Of a stretch of DNA of 64,000 nt, positions 39,738 to 49,306 are shown one piece after another. Origin of the DNA: Scenedesmus sp. PABB004 (Eukaryota); contig JABVCE010000026.1 of assembly GCA_014905635.1 (NCBI GenBank), positions 434,001-498,000 on the forward strand, read 5' to 3'. Numbering within the stretch: the stretch's first letter is position 1; each line of letters starts with the position of its first letter. The notes beneath the pieces are model-generated. The model was not told the DNA's origin, did not search any database, and saw only the letters and a program-made list of their open reading frames with translations. The position numbers and the translations under genes were made by a program.

Positions 39738-40122
39738 GGCGGCCTGCGCGCGGGGCGGCGCGGCGGCGCGGCGTGTGGGGCAGCTGCGCGCGGCTGCCGG
39801 CGGTCGCTCCCCCCCCCTCCGCGCGCAGGCGCCGGCGCTCGGGCGGCCCCCGGCCCAATGACGGCCCGCCGCGGTGCGGCGCGGGGCCGCGCCTGCACGG
39901 CGGCGGCGGAGCGGTGGCGGCAGCGCCGCCGTGCGCGCGGGCGGTGCGGTGCGCGGTGGCGGGCACGCGGCCTGCGGCGGGTCTCAGTGGCGCGGCCGCG
40001 TCGCGGGCGGGGCGGGGGTGCGCGGGCGCGGGGGCCGAGGGCGGTTCAAGCTCGTCCGCGCACCTGCCGCTCGGCCGCGCACCTGTTGCCGCGCGCCGCG
40101 CCCGCGAGCCACAACACACGCG

Positions 40123-42366
40123 ATGGCGACGCGGCGCGTGGCGCTGCTGGAATGCGAGGACGCCCCGAAGTGGGCGGGCTACACTGAGAGCGTGAGCTGC
40201 GGCCGGCGCGGCGGGGGCGCTGCTGCTCGCGCGCCTCACGCCCCACGCGCCGCCGTGCAGTTATGGCGCGCTGCCGTGGAGGAGCCCGGTGACGAGTGGC
40301 GCGTCTGGCGGGTGCGTGCTGCTAGCGGCGGCAGCGGCAGCGGCGGCAGCGGCGGCGGAGCAGCAGCGGCGTCGCGTTTGCTCGGGCCGGCGCGTCGCCA
40401 GGGCGCGCCGCGCAGCTGCGCCGCACGCCCCTCCCTCAAGCTCCCGCGCTCTCGCTCTCCCACCGCCGCCGGGCCGCCGCCGCGCAGGCATGCGCCGGCG
40501 AGCTGCCGACGGCGGACGAGGCGGCCGCGTGCGACGCTGTCATCGTCGGCGGCAGCCACTACTCCGCCTATGAGGACCACGTCTGGATCCAGCGCCTGCT
40601 GGAGCTGCTGCCCGCGTACGCAGCAAGCGGCGCCCGCATCTACGGCTGCTGCTTCGGCGCGCAGGCACGGGTCCGGGGCGCGCGCGCCGCACCGCGTGGC
40701 GGCCGCGTCGGCGCAGCGCGCGGCCCTGCAGCCGCGGCGGCGGCCGGCCCGCGACGCCGCGCGCCCGGCCTGTGCGCAGATCCTGGCGCGCGCGCTGGGT
40801 GGCGAGGTGGGGCCCAACCCGGACGGCGCGTTTGTGCTGACGCTCGAGTCGGTGCAGCCGACGCCGGAGCTGGCGCGGTTTGAGGGGCTGCACGCCGCGC
40901 TGCAGGCGGACCTGGCGAGCGGCGACGGCGCCGCGGCCGCCGCCGCGCCGCTGCCGGCAGACGCCGCGGGCGCCGCGCTGGCGGCGCTGAGCCTCTCGCC
41001 GCCGCCCGGCGGCGACGAGGCGCGCGCGGCAGCGGCCGAGCAGCAGGCGGGGGCCGCGGCAGCGCCCGGCGGGCTGCGGCTGATCGAGTCTCACGGCGAC
41101 CAGGTGCGGCGGCACGGTGCGCGCGGCTGGGCGGCCGCGCCCGCGGCGGCGCACCACGCGGCCCGCCCGCTCGCCTGTGCGCCTCGCCAGGTGCTGGCGC
41201 TGCCGCCCGGCGCGGTGCGGCTCGCCACGAGCCCGACCGCGGCCAACGAGCTCTGGGCGTGGGGCCCCAACGTGCTGGCGAGCCAGTTTCATGTTGAGTT
41301 TGATGAGCCGCTGGTCCTCCAGAAGATCTGGGCCACGCTGCGCGACGCGGGCCGGCTCTCGCCGGAGCAGGCCGAGGCGAGCCGGCGGTCGCTGGCGGGC
41401 GGCGGCGCGCAGAGCGCGCGCGCGCTGCGTGTCATCAAGCACTTCCTGCGGCACGGCGCCGGCGACGCGGCGCGGCCGCCCGGCAGCAGCGCCGGCGGCG
41501 GCGGGGGCAGGGGCGACGGCGGCGCCGGCGGCGCGCCCGGCGGCGACGGCGGCGCACTCGGCGGCGGGAGCGCGCCTGCCGACGGTGCGCCACCACAGCA
41601 GCAGCAGCAGCAGCAGCAGCAGCCACCAGGCCCAGGCGCCGCACCGCCGCCGGGAGCGGCGGCTGCCGGGGAGCCCCTGCAGCCAGGGCTGCCGCCCCTG
41701 CGGGTGCCCGCGGACGCCGCCGCAGCCGCCGCCACGCGCAGCAGCAGCTGGCCGTCGGGGCTGGCCGGCGCCGACGCGGCGCCGCCGCACGGCTCCGCGG
41801 CGCCGAGCGGCGCGAGCAGCCCCACCGCCGCGTCGGAGGCGAGCTGGGCGGGCACCGCCAGCACGGCGAGCACGGTGCCGTTCTCTGTCATCGCCCACCA
41901 GCGCCGCGCCGCGGCGCGCGAGGCGGAGCTGGGCGAGGCCGCGGGCCGCATGGTCGGCGACGCGGACGCCGCGCTGCAGCTGCGCCTGCGCTTGTCCGGG
42001 CTCGACCTTGACACGCTCACGCAGCTCAACGCCGCGGCGGCGGAGGCGTACGGCGGCGCGGCCGAGCTCGCCGCGGCGCTGGGGCAGTTTGTGTCGGACC
42101 TCGGCGCGCGCCAGGCGGCGGTGCGCGAGGCGCTGTGCGCGCTGCCCGCGCTCGACCGCCAGCTGCGCGCGCTCGAGGGCACCGTGTCGGGCCTCGACCG
42201 GCGCAGCCGCGAGCTCGAGGCGCGGCTCGGCCTCGGCCGGGGCCGCGGCGCGTACGACTACCTGGCTGCCGCGGCGGGCAGCCTCAGCCGCGCCGGCAGC
42301 AGCGTGACGGCGGCCGCGGGCGGCGGCGCCGGCTGCCTCGGCGGCGGCGCGCTGCCGCGGCAGTGA
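40123..42366 (+). CDS. Class I glutamine amidotransferase-like (gamma-glutamyl peptidase/GMP-synthase type) protein with a C-terminal BLOC1S2-like coiled coil, about 5 exons
   Basis: IVGGSHYSAY, WIQRL, IYGCCFGAQ|ILARALGG, ESHGDQ|V..LPPGA, QFHVEF (Cys-His-Glu triad); tail LDTLTQLN..Y..LEGTVSGLDRRSRELEARL. Confidence 0.85.
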   Translation: MATRRVALLECEDAPKWAGYTESVSCGRRGGGAAARAPHAPRAAVQLWRAAVEEPGDEWRVWRVRAASGGSGSGGSGGGAAAASRLLGPARRQGAPRSCAARPSLKLPRSRSPTAAGPPPRRHAPASCRRRTRRPRATLSSSAAATTPPMRTTSGSSACWSCCPRTQQAAPASTAAASARRHGSGARAPHRVAAASAQRAALQPRRRPARDAARPACAQILARALGGEVGPNPDGAFVLTLESVQPTPELARFEGLHAALQADLASGDGAAAAAAPLPADAAGAALAALSLSPPPGGDEARAAAAEQQAGAAAAPGGLRLIESHGDQVRRHGARGWAAAPAAAHHAARPLACAPRQVLALPPGAVRLATSPTAANELWAWGPNVLASQFHVEFDEPLVLQKIWATLRDAGRLSPEQAEASRRSLAGGGAQSARALRVIKHFLRHGAGDAARPPGSSAGGGGGRGDGGAGGAPGGDGGALGGGSAPADGAPPQQQQQQQQQPPGPGAAPPPGAAAAGEPLQPGLPPLRVPADAAAAAATRSSSWPSGLAGADAAPPHGSAAPSGASSPTAASEASWAGTASTASTVPFSVIAHQRRAAAREAELGEAAGRMVGDADAALQLRLRLSGLDLDTLTQLNAAAAEAYGGAAELAAALGQFVSDLGARQAAVREALCALPALDRQLRALEGTVSGLDRRSRELEARLGLGRGRGAYDYLAAAAGSLSRAGSSVTAAAGGGAGCLGGGALPRQ

Positions 42367-42897: not shown

Positions 42898-45800
42898 TCA
42901 CGCGCAAAACATGTACAGGCTGTTGGCCGACGCGCACGCGACCACGTCGGCGCCGGGGTGCCACGCGAGGTGCAGGACCTTGCTGCCATAGTCCTGCGAG
43001 GTGCCGGGGCCCTGCTCCGCCGTGGCCATGGGGTCGCGGCTCGCCTCGAGCGTCGCGCCGCCGCGCAGCAGCCCGCCCGGCAGCCCGCGCCACGGCGCGC
43101 CGCCGCCGCCGCGCGCGCGGGGCGGCCCCGCCGCGTCCACCGCGTCCGCGCCACAGCCGCCGACGCCGCCGGCGCCGCTGCCGGGCGCCGCCGCCGGGGT
43201 GAGCGCGTCCCAAGCAGAGAACACGCGGAAGCTGTTGTTGTACGTCCCGGTCGCGACCGCGGCGCCGTCGCCGCTCACGGCGCAGCCAAACTTGTCAAAC
43301 ATGCAGTCGTTGTCGTACAGGTCGCACAGCTGCGGGCGGGCGGCAGGCACGGGGCGCCGGGCGGCGGCGGCGGGCGGCGGCGGCGGGCGGCGGCGGGCGG
43401 CGGCGGGCGGCGGCGGCGGGGGCGGCGCGCACATGCATGAGCCGGCGCGCCGGCGAGCCAGGGCGGGGCGAGCCGCGGCGGCCGAGCCCCGACCCCTCGG
43501 CGCGCCGGCGGCGCTGCGCGGCGCGGCGTTGCGCGGCCCCGGCGGGCGCGCACCCGCGGGCGCAGGTGCTCGTGCACCGCGAGCGTCGCGAGCGGGCGCG
43601 CCTCGGCCGCGAGGTCCCACACGCGCAGGGCCATGTAGTCGCGCGAGAGCAGGTAGCGCCCGCATGGCGAGAAGGCGATCGCGCTGGTCGAGGCGATGAC
43701 GTCGGAGAAGAAGCTCCGCGGGCCGCCGCCCTGCGGAAGAGTGGGAGGGAGGGGGAGGGAGGGGCGTGAGTGCGTGCGCGCGGGCGGGCGCGCGGGCGCG
43801 CGGGGAGTGGAGGAGGGGCCGTGCGGCGCGGCCGGCGGCGGCGGGGCCGCGCGTCGGGCGCGGGGCGCGCCGCCGCGCACCGGCGGCGGCGCCTCCTCGT
43901 AGACCTTTGCGCTGCGGTCGCACAGCGCGGCGGCGCGCATGTCGGCGAGCCGCACGCAGCCGCGGCTGCTCGCATACGCGAGCGTTGCGCAGTGCGAGGG
44001 GTGGAACTGCACGCTGGTGATGACCTGCGGCCAGGGGGGGGGGCAGGGCGGCGAGCAGGGGGCGGGGCGGAGAGGGGCACGGTCGGCGCGCGCAGCCGCG
44101 CGCGCGCTCGCGCCTGAGGCCCCGCTGCAGCGGCCCGGGCGCCGCGACCCAGGCCGGCGGCGGCGGCGCGGCGGGGCCACCATGCCAGCGGCGCGGCCTG
44201 GCCGCCCCTAAACCCTAAACCCCTGTAGACCCACCTCGGCGAGGTCGTCCATGTTGGGCGGCTTGAGGTCGACGAGCGTGAACGCGGCGCGCTGCTCCTC
44301 GAGGCTCCACAGGTTGATGCGCAGGTCGTCCGCCGACAGGAAGGTCGCCTGGTCGCTGTTGACGCTGAGCGAGTGGATGTGATACGTGTGGCCGTTGGCA
44401 AACACGCGCCGCGCGCGCGACACGAGCGCCGCCTCGCGCGCGGCCACGCGCGGCAGGCGCAGCGCGCCGACGCTGCCCGGTGGCGCCGGCGCGCGCGGCG
44501 CGGCGCACGCGGGCGCGGCCGCGGCCTGCGGCGGCGCGGCGGCGGCGGCGGGTGCGCGTTGGCGGCGGCGCGCCAGGCGGCGCGGCGCCGCGCTGCGCGC
44601 GGCGCACTCACGCCGCGGCGGCGTGCGGGGCGCCCCACTCGGTGACGACCTGGCTGCGCCTCTCATACACCTGCGCGCACGCGCGCGGCGCGCGGCGCCG
44701 CTCAGGCGGGCGCGGCGGGGCGCGTGGCGGCGCGGCCCGGTCGCGCGACCGCGCCGCCCTGCCGCGCCGCGCCGCGCCGCGGCCGCGGCCGCCGCGCCTT
44801 CCAGAGCTTGATGGTCTTGTCGTTCGTCGACAGCAGCGCGTGCGACCGCCCGCCGGGGAGCCACTGGATGGCGTTGATGCGCTCCTCGATCTCCAGTGAC
44901 TTGAGGTAGTCAAACTCGGGCTCGTGGCTCTGCAGCTCAGTAAGGTAGCGGTACTCAAACCCGGGGCCCCACGCCGGCGGGCCCGCGGGCCGCGCGTCGG
45001 GCGGCGCCGGGCGCTGCGCGCGGGGGCGAGAGCGCGGCGCGAGCGTGGGCACGTGGGCGCGCGGGCGGCGCCGCACTGCGCCGCACGGCGCGCGAGGGGC
45101 GCTCGCGGCGAGGCGAGGCGCGCGCACCGGCGGCGCGGCGACGCGCTCAAACAGCACCACGCGCCCGCCGCGGTCGCCGGTGGCCAGGAAGGAGCCGTCG
45201 CGGTCGAACTGAACCGCCGAGATGACGTCGGCTGGCGGGCCAGGCGCGGCGGCAGCGGCGGCGCGGGGCGGTGAGGGCGCGGCGTGCTCGGGCAGAGCGC
45301 CGCGCGCAGGGCCGGCCGGCCAGGCGGCGGGGGCGGCAGCGCCCGGCGGGCGCTCAAGCGGCGGCGTTCCGGCGGGCACTCACGCTCTTGTACCTCCTCG
45401 TCCGGCGTGCGCTCGCCGAAGCACTGCAGAAAGTGCCACGGCCCCGGCGCGCCCCGGGCCGGCGCGCAGCGCTGCCCGCCGCTGGCGGGCGCGTCCCAGG
45501 CTGCTGCGCCGCCCGCGCAGCCGGGGCCGGCCTGCTGCGGCTGCGCAGCGCCCGTCGGGGCGGCGGCGCGCCCGGCCGCCGCCGCCGCCGCGGCCTGGTC
45601 GCCCTGGCCGCGCCTGTGCAGCAGGCGGCGCAGGCAGCCGTCCGCCTCCTCCGGCGCCAGGAACAGCCCGCAGCACGGCTGCGCGCAGCCCGCCTGCAGC
45701 GCCGCCAGCAGCTGCGCGACGCTGCGCTGCGCCGGCGGCGTGGCCGACAGAAACTGCTGCAGCGACGCCAGCGCCGCGGCGCAGCCGGGGCGGTGGAGGC

Positions 45801-48341
45801 CGGCGAGCTCCGCGTGCAGGCCGCGACACCACGCTGCGACCGCGAGGCCGCCGCTGCGGCCGGGGTGGGCCTGCGGCGGCTGCTCGCCGCCGCCCTGCGC
45901 GCTGATGCTGGCCGCCGCGAGGCCGCTCGCGGCCGCGGCCTCCAGCAGCAGCGCCTCGCCCTCGGTCTCGCCCGCGCACAGCGCGCGCCGCGCCGCCCAC
46001 GCGAGCGCCGCCTGCCCGTCTGCGCAGGGGTCGGCGCCGTGCAGCAGCAGCAGGCGCGCCATGTGCAGCCGGCTGCTGCCCAGCAGCGCCGCGAGCTGCA
46101 GCGCCGCGTCCAGCGCCGCCTGGCTGTGCGCATGCGCGGCGAGCAGGCGCGCCAGGCCCTCGGTCGCGCCGGACATGACCGCTTCCGGCAGGCCGCCTGC
46201 GCGGTGGCCGCACGGGCGCGCAGCGCGCGTGGGCGGGCGCGCCGGCAGCGCCCGGCACGGCGCGCGCCGCGCGCTCGGCAACCAGGGAGGCGCGCGCACC
46301 TTGTGGCCCCAGCACGACGCTGAGCTCCTGCAGCGACGCAGCGCGCAGCATGGCAGGGACGTGCAGCGACAGGTCGGGCCAGGCGCCGCCGCCGCCGGCA
46401 CCGCTGAGCAGGCCAGCCTTGGCGCCGCACGGCGCCGCCGCCTGCGCCTGCGCGTGCTCGGCCGGCGCCGCCCCCGCTCGCTGCAGCAGCTGCAGCGCCG
46501 GATGCGGCGCGGCCTCGCCCTGCTGCGGCTGCTCGCGAGGTGCAGCGGAGGCAGCCTGCAGCACCTGCTGCAGGCTGACACCCCGCCAGCTGCTGTCGGG
46601 CTCGGTCGGCAGGCCGTGCAGCCTGCTCCACTGCATCAGCTCCTGCGGGGCGGCCGGGGCGCGTGAGGAACCCCCCGCCAGCGGCCGGCAACAGTCGGCA
46701 GCGGCGCGCAGGCGCACCAGCAGCACGTGCTCGTCGCCGCTGGCGGCGGCCAGTAGGAGCAGCGGCGGCGCCTGCTGCGCCGCCGTGCCGCCGCCCGCCC
46801 ACGCCAGGCGCTGCCGCGCGACGAGCGCCTGCTCAGCCGGCGGCCCCGCCGCGCCAGGCGCCAGCCGCGCGGCCGCGAGGCGCTGAAGCACCCAGCGCAC
46901 GACGTGCAGGCGCCCCTGCCGGATGCCGGCGGCGAGCAGCGCGGCCGCCGCAGCGGCGCGGCACGAGGCCACGCGCAGCGGCAGGAGCTCGTCGGGCGCA
47001 CAGGGTTCAGCCTCCTGCGCCTGCTCGCCGCCGCCGTCGTGCGCGCGCGCCGCCAGCAGGGCGGCCAGCTGCTCGTGCGGCTGCAGCAGCAGGCGGTGCA
47101 GCTGCTGCAGCAGCTCCGCGCCGCCCGGCGCGCACAGCCTGCGGCGGCGCGGCGCGGCGCGGCGCGGCGACGGGTCAGGGAGCAGGGCGGCGCGGCGCGC
47201 GCGCTGGCGCGGCGCGTGCCGCCGCGCGGCAGCGCACATCTCGCTGAGCTGCCCGGCCGCGCGGTGGTCCGCCTGGAGCACGAGCAGGGGCTCGGGCGCG
47301 CTGCTGTAAAAGCCCTGGCTCGCCACGGCTAAATGCAGGGGTCCCTCGCGCGCGAGCGCGGCGGCCGGCAGCGGCACGCTCCACGCGCCGCGGCCCGCCT
47401 GCTCGCCCGCCGGCAGCAGCGGCAGCGTGTGCAGCGCCGCCCCCGCCTGCAGCAGCACCACCGCCTGCGCCGGGTCGGCGCCGCCGACGCGCAGCTGCAG
47501 CGCCGCGCCCGGCGCGCCCGCCGGCAGCACGCGCGCGCTCAGCGCCTGCAGCACGGGCGCGTCGGGCGCGCCGGGCGGCAGGTGCGCGCCCCAGTGCTGG
47601 CTGCTCCACGCCACCGCGCCGCCGCCGGCGCAGGCCGCGACGACCTGGCCGGCGCCGGCGCCGCCGCCCGCCGCTGCCGCGCGGCGCGCGCTCGCGGCCG
47701 CAAAGTGCCAGACCCAGCCCGACAGCTGGAAGGGCGTGGGGCACGCGATGCTGCCGGGCAGCTGCGCCGCCGCGCGGATGCTGCCGCCGCCGACGGCGAC
47801 GTCGCCGCCCGCGGCGCCCAGCAGCTCGCGCAGCGTGGCGCGCACGAACGCGGCGTCCCCGGGCGTGGGCGGCTCGCTGCACGACGCGGCAAAGCCCACG
47901 CCCGCCAGGCCGCCGACCGGGTCGCCGCTGCGAGCCTGCGGTTGCCGGGGCAGCGGTCGGGGCGACAACGCCGCGTGGGCGGGCGCGCGGGCCGCGCGCG
48001 CCGGGCAGGCGCGGCACGGTCGCGCCGCGCGCGCTCACCTGCTGCTGCGCGCCGCCGCGGTGCCACGCGCGCGCCGCCTTGCAGGCGTCACTCTGCTGCC
48101 CAGCAGCGTCCCTGGTGCCGCCGGCGTCCGGGTCGGCATCCGTGACGCCCAGCTGCTGCGCCGCCACGCCGGCACCCGCGAGCGGGTCGAGCAGCACCGC
48201 GGCGGCGAGCCGCTGCCGCTCCCCGACCACGCCGACGTCTGCCAGCGCGGCGGCGACCGCCGAGCCCGTCCCATCGGCGCCCTCGGGCGGCGTGCCGGTC
48301 TCGGAGCCGGCCACCGACGCCTTGGCGCCATGGCGCAGCAT
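42898..48341 (-). CDS. PPP2R2: PP2A regulatory subunit B/B55 (WD40; about 45445-42898), preceded in frame by a long N-terminal extension with ankyrin-like helices
   Basis: [111 protein letters not shown]. The B55 part is high confidence; the 5' extent to 48341 is inferred from in-frame GT-AG joins. Confidence 0.8.
44206..44222 (-). repeat. Interstitial TTTAGGG telomere-like repeat in a B55 intron
   Basis: ccctaaaccctaaaccc on the + strand, just after a 5' splice site on the - strand. Confidence 0.65.
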
Positions 48342-49306
48342 GGGCGCGCTGCTGCCCGCTCTCACAGCCCCGCTCCGGCGGCTCCGCGCCACCGGCGGCT
48401 TGCCGGGCCGGCCCGAGTGTGCGCGGGGCGGCCGAGGGCGACTCGTGAAAGGGCGGCAGCCCGCGCCGCGCGCCAGGCCGATCGGCAGCTGCAGTGGCGC
48501 GCCCGCTGATTCGGGGCGCCCGCCTGCGCCCGGCACCGCGTTGCTTGTGCAGCGCAGCCGCGGACAGGCTAAGCGTCGCGCTCGCTCGCGGGAGAGCGGC
48601 TCGGGGGCGCTGCGGGCCAGTATGGTTGTTGAGGAGGGAGGCGAAGCGGCGGCACCTCCAGCACAAACCCCCTCACCGGCGCGAGCGGCCCCTTCCACGC
48701 GCACGGTACCTCATGACGGTCAGCGGTCACGCGGCCGCAGAGTTTGCGCGAGGACCAACGCGCGCGCCGCGGCACCTGCCCGCTGCTCGACTCCGGCGGC
48801 CGGCGGCACCAGAGGCGGCGGGCGCGCTCCCGGGGCCCTCGTGAGACGTGGCTTACGACGAAACCTCGGTGTTGTGCGTCCGGATCGCTGGGTTTGGAGG
48901 GCGGCCAGCAGCAGCGCGCGGCGGGTCACGCCGCCGAAAGTCAAGGCACTCACCGGCGCGAGCTCGCCCACGGCTTCGTGCAGGTCGTGGCTACTCGCCG
49001 TCTGTGCTCGCGCTGCCTGCGTGCGCAAACCGCTGGAATGCGGGAGTTCGGGGACTTGGGCGGGCGGGAAGCCTCGCGTCGAGGCTCACGCGGCGTCGTG
49101 TGGTGGCAATCGCCGCACACGAGCTGCGTTCTTGCACTCTTCAACGTCCAAGCAGCTGCCCGACGTTCTCCCACGCTCGCTTCGCGGCCCGCGCGCGAGC
49201 GCGCTCGCTACCGGCCCGCTCGCGGCCCGCGCGCGAGCCAGGGCCCCAGCTCGCGCGCAGCTCGGAAAGGCTCGTGCGAGCTCAGCGTCCCCCCACCACG
49301 CCAGCC

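Follow-up and report, generated by a model that had tools for sequence, protein, structure and literature searches.

A PP2A B55 subunit with a probable long N-terminal extension bearing an ankyrin-like module in Scenedesmus sp. PABB004

Regulatory B55 subunits of protein phosphatase 2A (PP2A) are among the most uniform phosphatase adaptors: a B55 is normally a WD40 propeller with a short N-terminus, a usually bare propeller to which substrates and inhibitors come in trans. A different arrangement is suggested by the stretch of DNA analysed here, a window of 64,000 nucleotides from the green alga Scenedesmus sp. PABB004 (contig JABVCE010000026.1, positions 434,001 to 498,000; all coordinates below are those of the window). 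By its reading frame, the minus strand from 48341 to 42898 is one gene, in which five upstream exons lead into the B55 start motif, and the product is probably a B55 of ~1,315–1,346 amino acids (aa) with ~870 extra N-terminal residues that include an ankyrin-like module. The continuous frame, the B55 membership, the ankyrin-like module and the conservation in other green algae are established by sequence comparison; the protein is on these grounds a real, lineage-specific variant of B55, for which we infer a function. The last B55 exon matches, with 100% identity, GenBank entry KAF8057941.1 (“PP2AB2”, Scenedesmus sp. PABB004, 1346 aa), which already has the same fused structure as the initial annotation of this DNA. 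The fused model has thus been public in GenBank without comment, and the new part is the interpretation, not the sequence. Literature searches on B55/PP2A, N-terminal extension, ankyrin and Chlamydomonas returned no paper in which a B55 with an extension or with ankyrin repeats is described.

The propeller itself is, as judged by homology, a bona fide PP2A B55 (PR55) regulatory subunit. In a phmmer search of the GenBank model against PDB, human B55alpha was matched with E ~6e-117 (four B55alpha sequences), model residues 874-1241 corresponding to chain residues 11-370. The propeller is thereby homologous to canonical B55/PR55 (human B55alpha, PDB 3DW8 chain B) over its whole length, the first homologous residues being 11 in the human chain and 874 in the GenBank model. 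All B55 exons were covered by tblastn with three B55 proteins, and WD40-type families were the only Pfam matches of the whole GenBank model at E ≤ 0.01. The N-terminal motif W.F.QCFGE..EEV.E.D[IV]IS, which in B55 forms the arm contacting the scaffold subunit, is present together with the EFDYLKS.EIEE segment, and both align with Tetradesmus obliquus, Scenedesmus sp. NREL 46B-D3 and the canonical algal-type B55 P0002 (472 aa), in which 11-12 residues precede the motif. Unlike canonical B55, the propeller here contains several GC-rich insertions.

The G+C content of the window is ~80% throughout; every frame of both strands is open over hundreds of codons, and 53 open reading frames of at least 80 aa overlap the 6.6 kb between 42800 and 49400 in six frames. 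Because stop codons are rare at this composition, an open frame is worthless as evidence for a gene. Codon periodicity, in contrast, is no chance effect: G+C at the first, second and third codon positions (GC1/GC2/GC3) is ~0.85/0.6/0.95 in each of exons 1-5, whereas phase G+C is flat in the four introns between them, in the next intron, in the 959-nt 5′ flank and in the 528-nt 3′ flank. Both flanks are lower-GC, non-periodic spacers (GC ~0.75-0.77), and no comparable spacer occurs inside the gene. A plus-strand gene as the origin of the periodicity was considered and dropped, as the order GC1>GC2 is compatible with the minus strand only.

As initially annotated, the five exons join in frame from ATG 48341, the first in-frame ATG downstream of the stop at 48711-48713, with GT donors and AG acceptors at all introns between them. 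A stand-alone propeller would carry a short N-terminal tail; here 859 stop-free codons run up to and including the B55 start motif, which forms their final residues. Within 46700-45340 the minus strand has stops at 46638, 45382 and 45356 only, counting all frames, and none in any frame of 46637-45383; whatever its splicing, a gene including exon 4 therefore has to run on as far as the B55 motif. The only minus-strand ATGs in 46300-45384 are 46176 and 46062, both in frame, and 46133 in the +1 frame. No ATG occurs in any frame of 46061-45384, and a short B55 therefore has no AUG from which to start there. The in-frame ATG closest to the W codon of the motif (45438) is that at 46062, at a distance of 208 codons, in agreement with the original statement that none lies within ~200 codons upstream of WHFLQCFGE. 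A separate B55 start in an ATG exon within 45450-46000, combined with a separate stop for the upstream gene, had been named at the outset as the arrangement that would speak against a fusion; neither an ATG nor a stop is available for it.

The same observations bear on the alternative that two adjacent genes on this strand, one encoding the ankyrin module and the other a canonical B55, have been wrongly merged, being bridged in PABB004 and T. obliquus through conserved gene order. We regard such a merger as rather unlikely. Besides the lack of a usable stop and start, codon periodicity persists in the B55 frame throughout exon 5, and nothing inside the gene resembles the low-GC, non-periodic sequence of the true flanks.

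A relative of more ordinary base composition provides comparative evidence, the genome of T. obliquus being given as ~57% GC in the available text of PMC12571836. In T. obliquus, WIA15464.1 (848 aa) and the longer WIA35661.1 (870 aa), annotated as hypothetical protein / B55, contain a homologous extension of ~370-390 residues before B55, so that the same fusion is modelled in a related alga. The order of extension, ankyrin block, block B (a conserved segment described below), linker and B55 is shared, whereas the extension is ~870 aa long in PABB004. BLASTP of the GenBank model against WIA15464.1 produced a single alignment of 740 columns, 365 of them identical (49%), which begins at the ankyrin block, covers block B and the linker and ends at the C-terminus. 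Farther upstream, an ungapped T. obliquus match of 55 aa spans the exon 2|3 junction with a score of 106, a value reached by none of 300 shuffles (40 ± 6.4). Both the start (LLLQP..LLAA) and the end of exon 3 are conserved in T. obliquus, the match of WIA35661.1 bridges the exon 3|4 junction at equal length, and the start of exon 4 is conserved in WIA35661 as LLEQWSAAHGLP. These junction matches support the splicing originally proposed. The first helix of the module (AGDLFAAVAAGNLPG) is missing from both T. obliquus models (P0003 / P0025), but metagenome fragments nearly identical to T. obliquus (P0018) do encode it, which suggests that the T. obliquus models are imperfectly spliced, probably through a wrong acceptor.

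Conservation of the module extends beyond this pair of species. A HMMER search with exon 5 among 1.84 billion representatives yielded 18 matches at E ≤ 1e-3: four are ordinary multi-ankyrin proteins, and the other 14, taken from Logan assemblies and from metagenome contigs of JGI/IMG, are short algal-type fragments that carry block A (the ankyrin-like part) and/or block B. Seven fragments (P0008, P0009, P0012, P0015, P0016, P0018, P0021) have unrelated residues followed by AGD[LI] as the beginning of the module. AGD[LI] is the translation of an acceptor at the same place and phase as 46197|46196, and these lineages therefore also have upstream exons. Judging from these fragments, the phase-1 acceptor gCAG|G (46196/46197) seems to be conserved and the intron position seems to be older than Scenedesmaceae. 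Two metagenome scans with narrower alignments matched the patterns in 598 and 595 stretches, none of which was confirmed by tblastn.

Translation might instead begin within exon 5, at ATG 46176 or 46062, leaving an arm of 246 or 208 aa and making exons 1-4 a separate transcript or an untranslated leader. These two codons are the sole in-frame ATGs of exon 5, exon 1 and most of exon 2 are without homologues found, and at the N-terminus the T. obliquus models fall short by ~450-500 aa. Still, such a shorter extension appears quite improbable: exons 1-4 are fully coding-periodic with no available stop, and the end of exon 2, exon 3 and the start of exon 4 are conserved within the same T. obliquus models. 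Neither start codon is convincing in itself, as ATG 46176 is aligned with non-Met residues in every relative and a start at 46062 would split an ankyrin repeat in half. The conserved acceptor just 5′ of the module in relatives likewise implies upstream coding exons.

Exon 5 alone carries the ankyrin-like pair, block B, the linker and the first 18 B55 residues. Its residues 1 to ~75 are ankyrin-like by profile comparison, and the peptides quoted in the initial annotation, including an ankyrin-like string of this exon, are all present in the translation. The Pfam match to Ank_2 in exon 5 has E 0.0053, below the curated cutoff; among the 14 related sequences Ank is found in 8 and Ank_2 in 7 at E ≤ 0.1, with best E values of 3.9e-4 and 4.6e-5. 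A profile of the 14 sequences matched 314 PDB sequences at E ≤ 0.1, the top 60 being all ankyrin or designed ankyrin repeat protein (DARPin) chains. The best of them is tankyrase-1 (E 1.8e-17, profile positions 6-77), and in the same search E for single repeat pairs is only 0.025-0.044. AlphaFold2 (AF2) with the 14-sequence alignment gives a predicted local distance difference test score (pLDDT) of ~87-95 for exon-5 residues 1-60. In a tblastn search of the window with the 14 fragments the module occurred only once, and a block-A hidden Markov model found no further ankyrin-like repeats in exons 1-4.

Behind the repeats lies block B, with the pattern AVxAWCxGLxxELxGL ... LQQFL ... QR[ST]VxxLLxxL and an AF2 pLDDT of ~80 for exon-5 residues 140-170. 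It matches no known family: the PDB profile search gave no match past position ~94, and the ESM Atlas gave no usable match. Over exon-5 residues 214-270, which include the B55 motif at residue 253, the pLDDT falls below 50. In one of the related sequences, P0013 (JGI/IMG, 400 aa, contig up to 29.9 kb), block B occurs four times in tandem, with the repeat unit LQQYL...EQR[SG]V.GLLAAL...GGLFLDAS; this tandem may reflect a genuine expansion of the repeat, a read-through of repeated exons or an artefact of assembly.

Against the reading as a single gene with an ankyrin-like module stand a number of results. The Pfam ankyrin scores are below the gathering cutoffs (Ank_2 17.7 bits vs 27.3, Ank 14 vs 21.1). 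As regards the helix-turn-helix repeat fold, ankyrin proteins dominate both fold searches, although at weak scores: Foldseek with the AF2 module retrieved DARPin/ankyrin entries over ~76 columns with a root-mean-square deviation of ~2.5 Å, every E being at least 0.6, and in VIA-align most of 50 rows were ankyrin proteins with Z 6.2-7.5, none reaching 8. None of the 14 fragments extends to a B55 start, which also favours a merger, and the fusion is therefore documented within Scenedesmaceae. Searches gave no homologue of exon 1 or of most of exon 2, and single-sequence AF2 of exons 2-4 has a pLDDT of 40, an unreliable fold. Every long model is an automatic annotation. The PABB004 assembly is described in the available text of PMC12571836 as having 39.8 Mb, 78.5% GC and 7,092 genes; with so few genes and so few stops at this composition, automatic annotation may over-merge, and merged models may therefore be common in the PABB004 annotation. 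Mis-spliced models may be frequent there as well.

A further point for a merger comes from Scenedesmus sp. NREL 46B-D3, in which the model KAF6266396.1, a stand-alone B55 of 506 aa, has 36 residues ahead of the motif. This short model may be a truncated prediction, or translation in that relative may really begin at an internal start. One T. obliquus model also has a Met 49 aa before the motif. In the other T. obliquus model the nearest Met is at 138 aa, with V at the site of the first model's Met, and in PABB004 it is at 208 aa. The two T. obliquus models thus do not share the candidate Met, which has no counterpart in NREL 46B-D3 either; start codons before the B55 motif are not conserved among these algae.

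One claim of the initial annotation is not supported, namely that the extension resembles the non-DNA-binding C-terminal region of SPL1/CRR1-type proteins. A descent of the extension from a long SBP-box protein (SPL1/SPL7/CRR1 type), whose non-DNA-binding C-terminal part was fused to B55 after loss of the zinc finger, is very improbable. There is some ground for the comparison: in the available text of PMC10796333, ankyrin repeats are among the conserved C-terminal motifs of long SPL proteins, and by eye some exon 2 strings align beside SPL motifs 3, 11 and 9 of its Table S3. Long SBP-box proteins (SPL1/12/14/16, SPL7, CRR1) are also alike in placing ankyrin repeats in a long, mostly uncharacterised non-DNA-binding region. 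Four consensus motifs from that table (10, 11, 20 and 9) were compared by Smith-Waterman alignment with 200 shuffles each. Their scores were reached by 24, 43, 9 and 146 of 200 shuffles in the extension, and by 27, 21, 101 and 46 of 200 in T. obliquus residues 1-395, which is within the shuffled range in both species. The best placements are non-collinear and fall outside the strings on which the resemblance had been based. In contrast to long SBP-box proteins, the PABB004 protein has no SBP domain, and the four motifs are undetectable above shuffles. The absence of an SBP zinc finger, already remarked on originally, was borne out by Pfam searches of the five exon translations (E ≤ 1) and of the GenBank model (E ≤ 0.01). 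Pfam on exons 1-4 returned no family at E ≤ 1 except one noise match, and the GenBank model contains WD40-type families only, as noted above. Ankyrin repeats, for their part, are too widespread to serve as a marker of ancestry.

Exons 1-4 encode ~590 residues that are lineage-specific and conserved only in part. The second half of exon 2 has weak beta-strand predictions, and conservation of exon 2 in T. obliquus is confined to the last ~25 residues. A 545-aa read-through of exons 2-4 gave no match at E ≤ 1e-3 in a word-index search (8000 candidates of 299-954 aa), phmmer of exons 2-4 against PDB gave one match with E 0.94, which is noise, and exon 2 had no usable match in the ESM Atlas.

The GenBank model agrees with the single-gene structure and is probably mis-spliced twice, as far as can be judged from composition and homology. 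It reads through intron 2 (47237-47139), which is probably spliced out, because its phase G+C is flat and T. obliquus has no insert there. It also omits the 59-nt exon 44670-44612, which is homologous to the segment after KLWK in relatives, and begins the following exon at 44522. The revised model has 12 exons in frame with a single terminal stop, encodes 1315 aa, and includes one GC-AG intron starting at 44797 (Table 1).

Table 1. Coordinates of the predicted B55 gene and of the regions of its product (GC1/2/3, G+C fraction at the three codon positions)
Feature	Position	Strand	Description
Coding exon 1	48039..48341	-	101 codons; GC1/2/3 0.85/0.61/0.92
Coding exon 2	47238..47935	-	698 nt; Ala/Gly/Leu-rich; GC1/2/3 0.84/0.65/0.97
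Intron 2	47139..47237	-	99 nt, in frame, stop-free; phase GC 0.94/0.91/0.85, flat
Coding exon 3	46718..47138	-	421 nt; helical prediction; GC1/2/3 0.94/0.56/0.94
Coding exon 4	46300..46642	-	343 nt; GC1/2/3 0.84/0.57/0.89
Intron 4	46197..46299	-	103 nt; frame shift of one; phase-1 acceptor gCAG|G
Coding exon 5	45384..46196	-	813 nt; GC1/2/3 0.85/0.64/0.96
Ankyrin-like repeat pair	45970..46196	-	exon-5 residues 1 to ~75; Pfam, profile, AF2 and fold searches
Conserved block B	45625..45903	-	~residues 98-190; predicted helical; conserved Cys/Trp
Linker	45439..45555	-	Ala/Gly/Pro/Gln-rich; ~40-55 residues; predicted disordered
Start of B55 homology	45385..45438	-	tblastn with three B55 proteins and phmmer
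Remaining B55 exons	45231-45128, 45013-44798 (GC donor), 44670-44612, 44472-44235	-	tblastn with B55 proteins
Last B55 exons	44024-43881, 43730-43554, 43329-42898 (stop TGA 42900-42898)	-	tblastn with B55 proteins

Both neighbouring genes are on the plus strand. The convergent neighbour (39862-42366) is a long open reading frame whose motifs are glutamine-amidotransferase-like and whose coiled-coil-like tail reaches its end at 42366, and the product of the divergent neighbour begins with a signal-peptide-like stretch at ATG ~49309.

If the gene is single, the extension would be translated together with B55 as one chain of ~1,315 aa, laid out as ~590 residues from exons 1-4, the ankyrin-like pair, the Cys/Trp helical block, the disordered linker and the seven-bladed propeller. 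Since ankyrin repeats are protein-binding modules, the extension may act as a tethered docking or regulatory domain. The module could bring the PP2A-B55 holoenzyme to a particular place or to a substrate or partner; alternatively, it could fold back via the flexible linker and gate the substrate face of the propeller. By analogy with the default role of ankyrin repeats, docking or targeting is favoured over gating in cis. The chimeric phosphatase adaptor with its own targeting module, as initially proposed, is thus retained as regards the long in-frame ankyrin-like extension, while targeting is a reasonable suggestion as to what that extension may do. Ankyrin-repeat regulatory subunits are known from other PPP phosphatases, namely MYPT1 for PP1 and ANKRD28/44/52 for PP6, and the likeness to them would lie in the working principle only, an ankyrin docking surface on a phosphatase regulatory subunit. 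Those proteins, from families of their own, have many repeats and make direct contact with the catalytic subunit, whereas here at most two or three repeats precede a B55 propeller on a flexible tether.

It is tempting to go further and to consider the ankyrin-like repeats and block B as an undescribed chlorophycean B55-partner domain, which was fused to B55 in Scenedesmaceae and gates or binds the propeller in cis, a “Rosetta stone” arrangement. In other lineages the module may then exist alone or on other proteins, and in the fused form it would inhibit B55 or select its substrates from within the same chain, much as, in principle, the small B55 binders of animals act in trans. This extension of the idea is unlikely, with an outside chance of being right; if it is true, the free relatives of the module become predicted PP2A-B55 regulators in green algae.

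At a more general level, a gene model near 80% G+C is still decidable when codon periodicity, the lack of a usable stop or start, and a relative of normal base composition are considered together. If one lineage has indeed acquired a permanently tethered binding module on an otherwise so uniform adaptor, the long B55 of these algae would represent a natural experiment on the targeting or restraint of PP2A-B55, and block B would be a new conserved algal domain and a candidate B55 partner.

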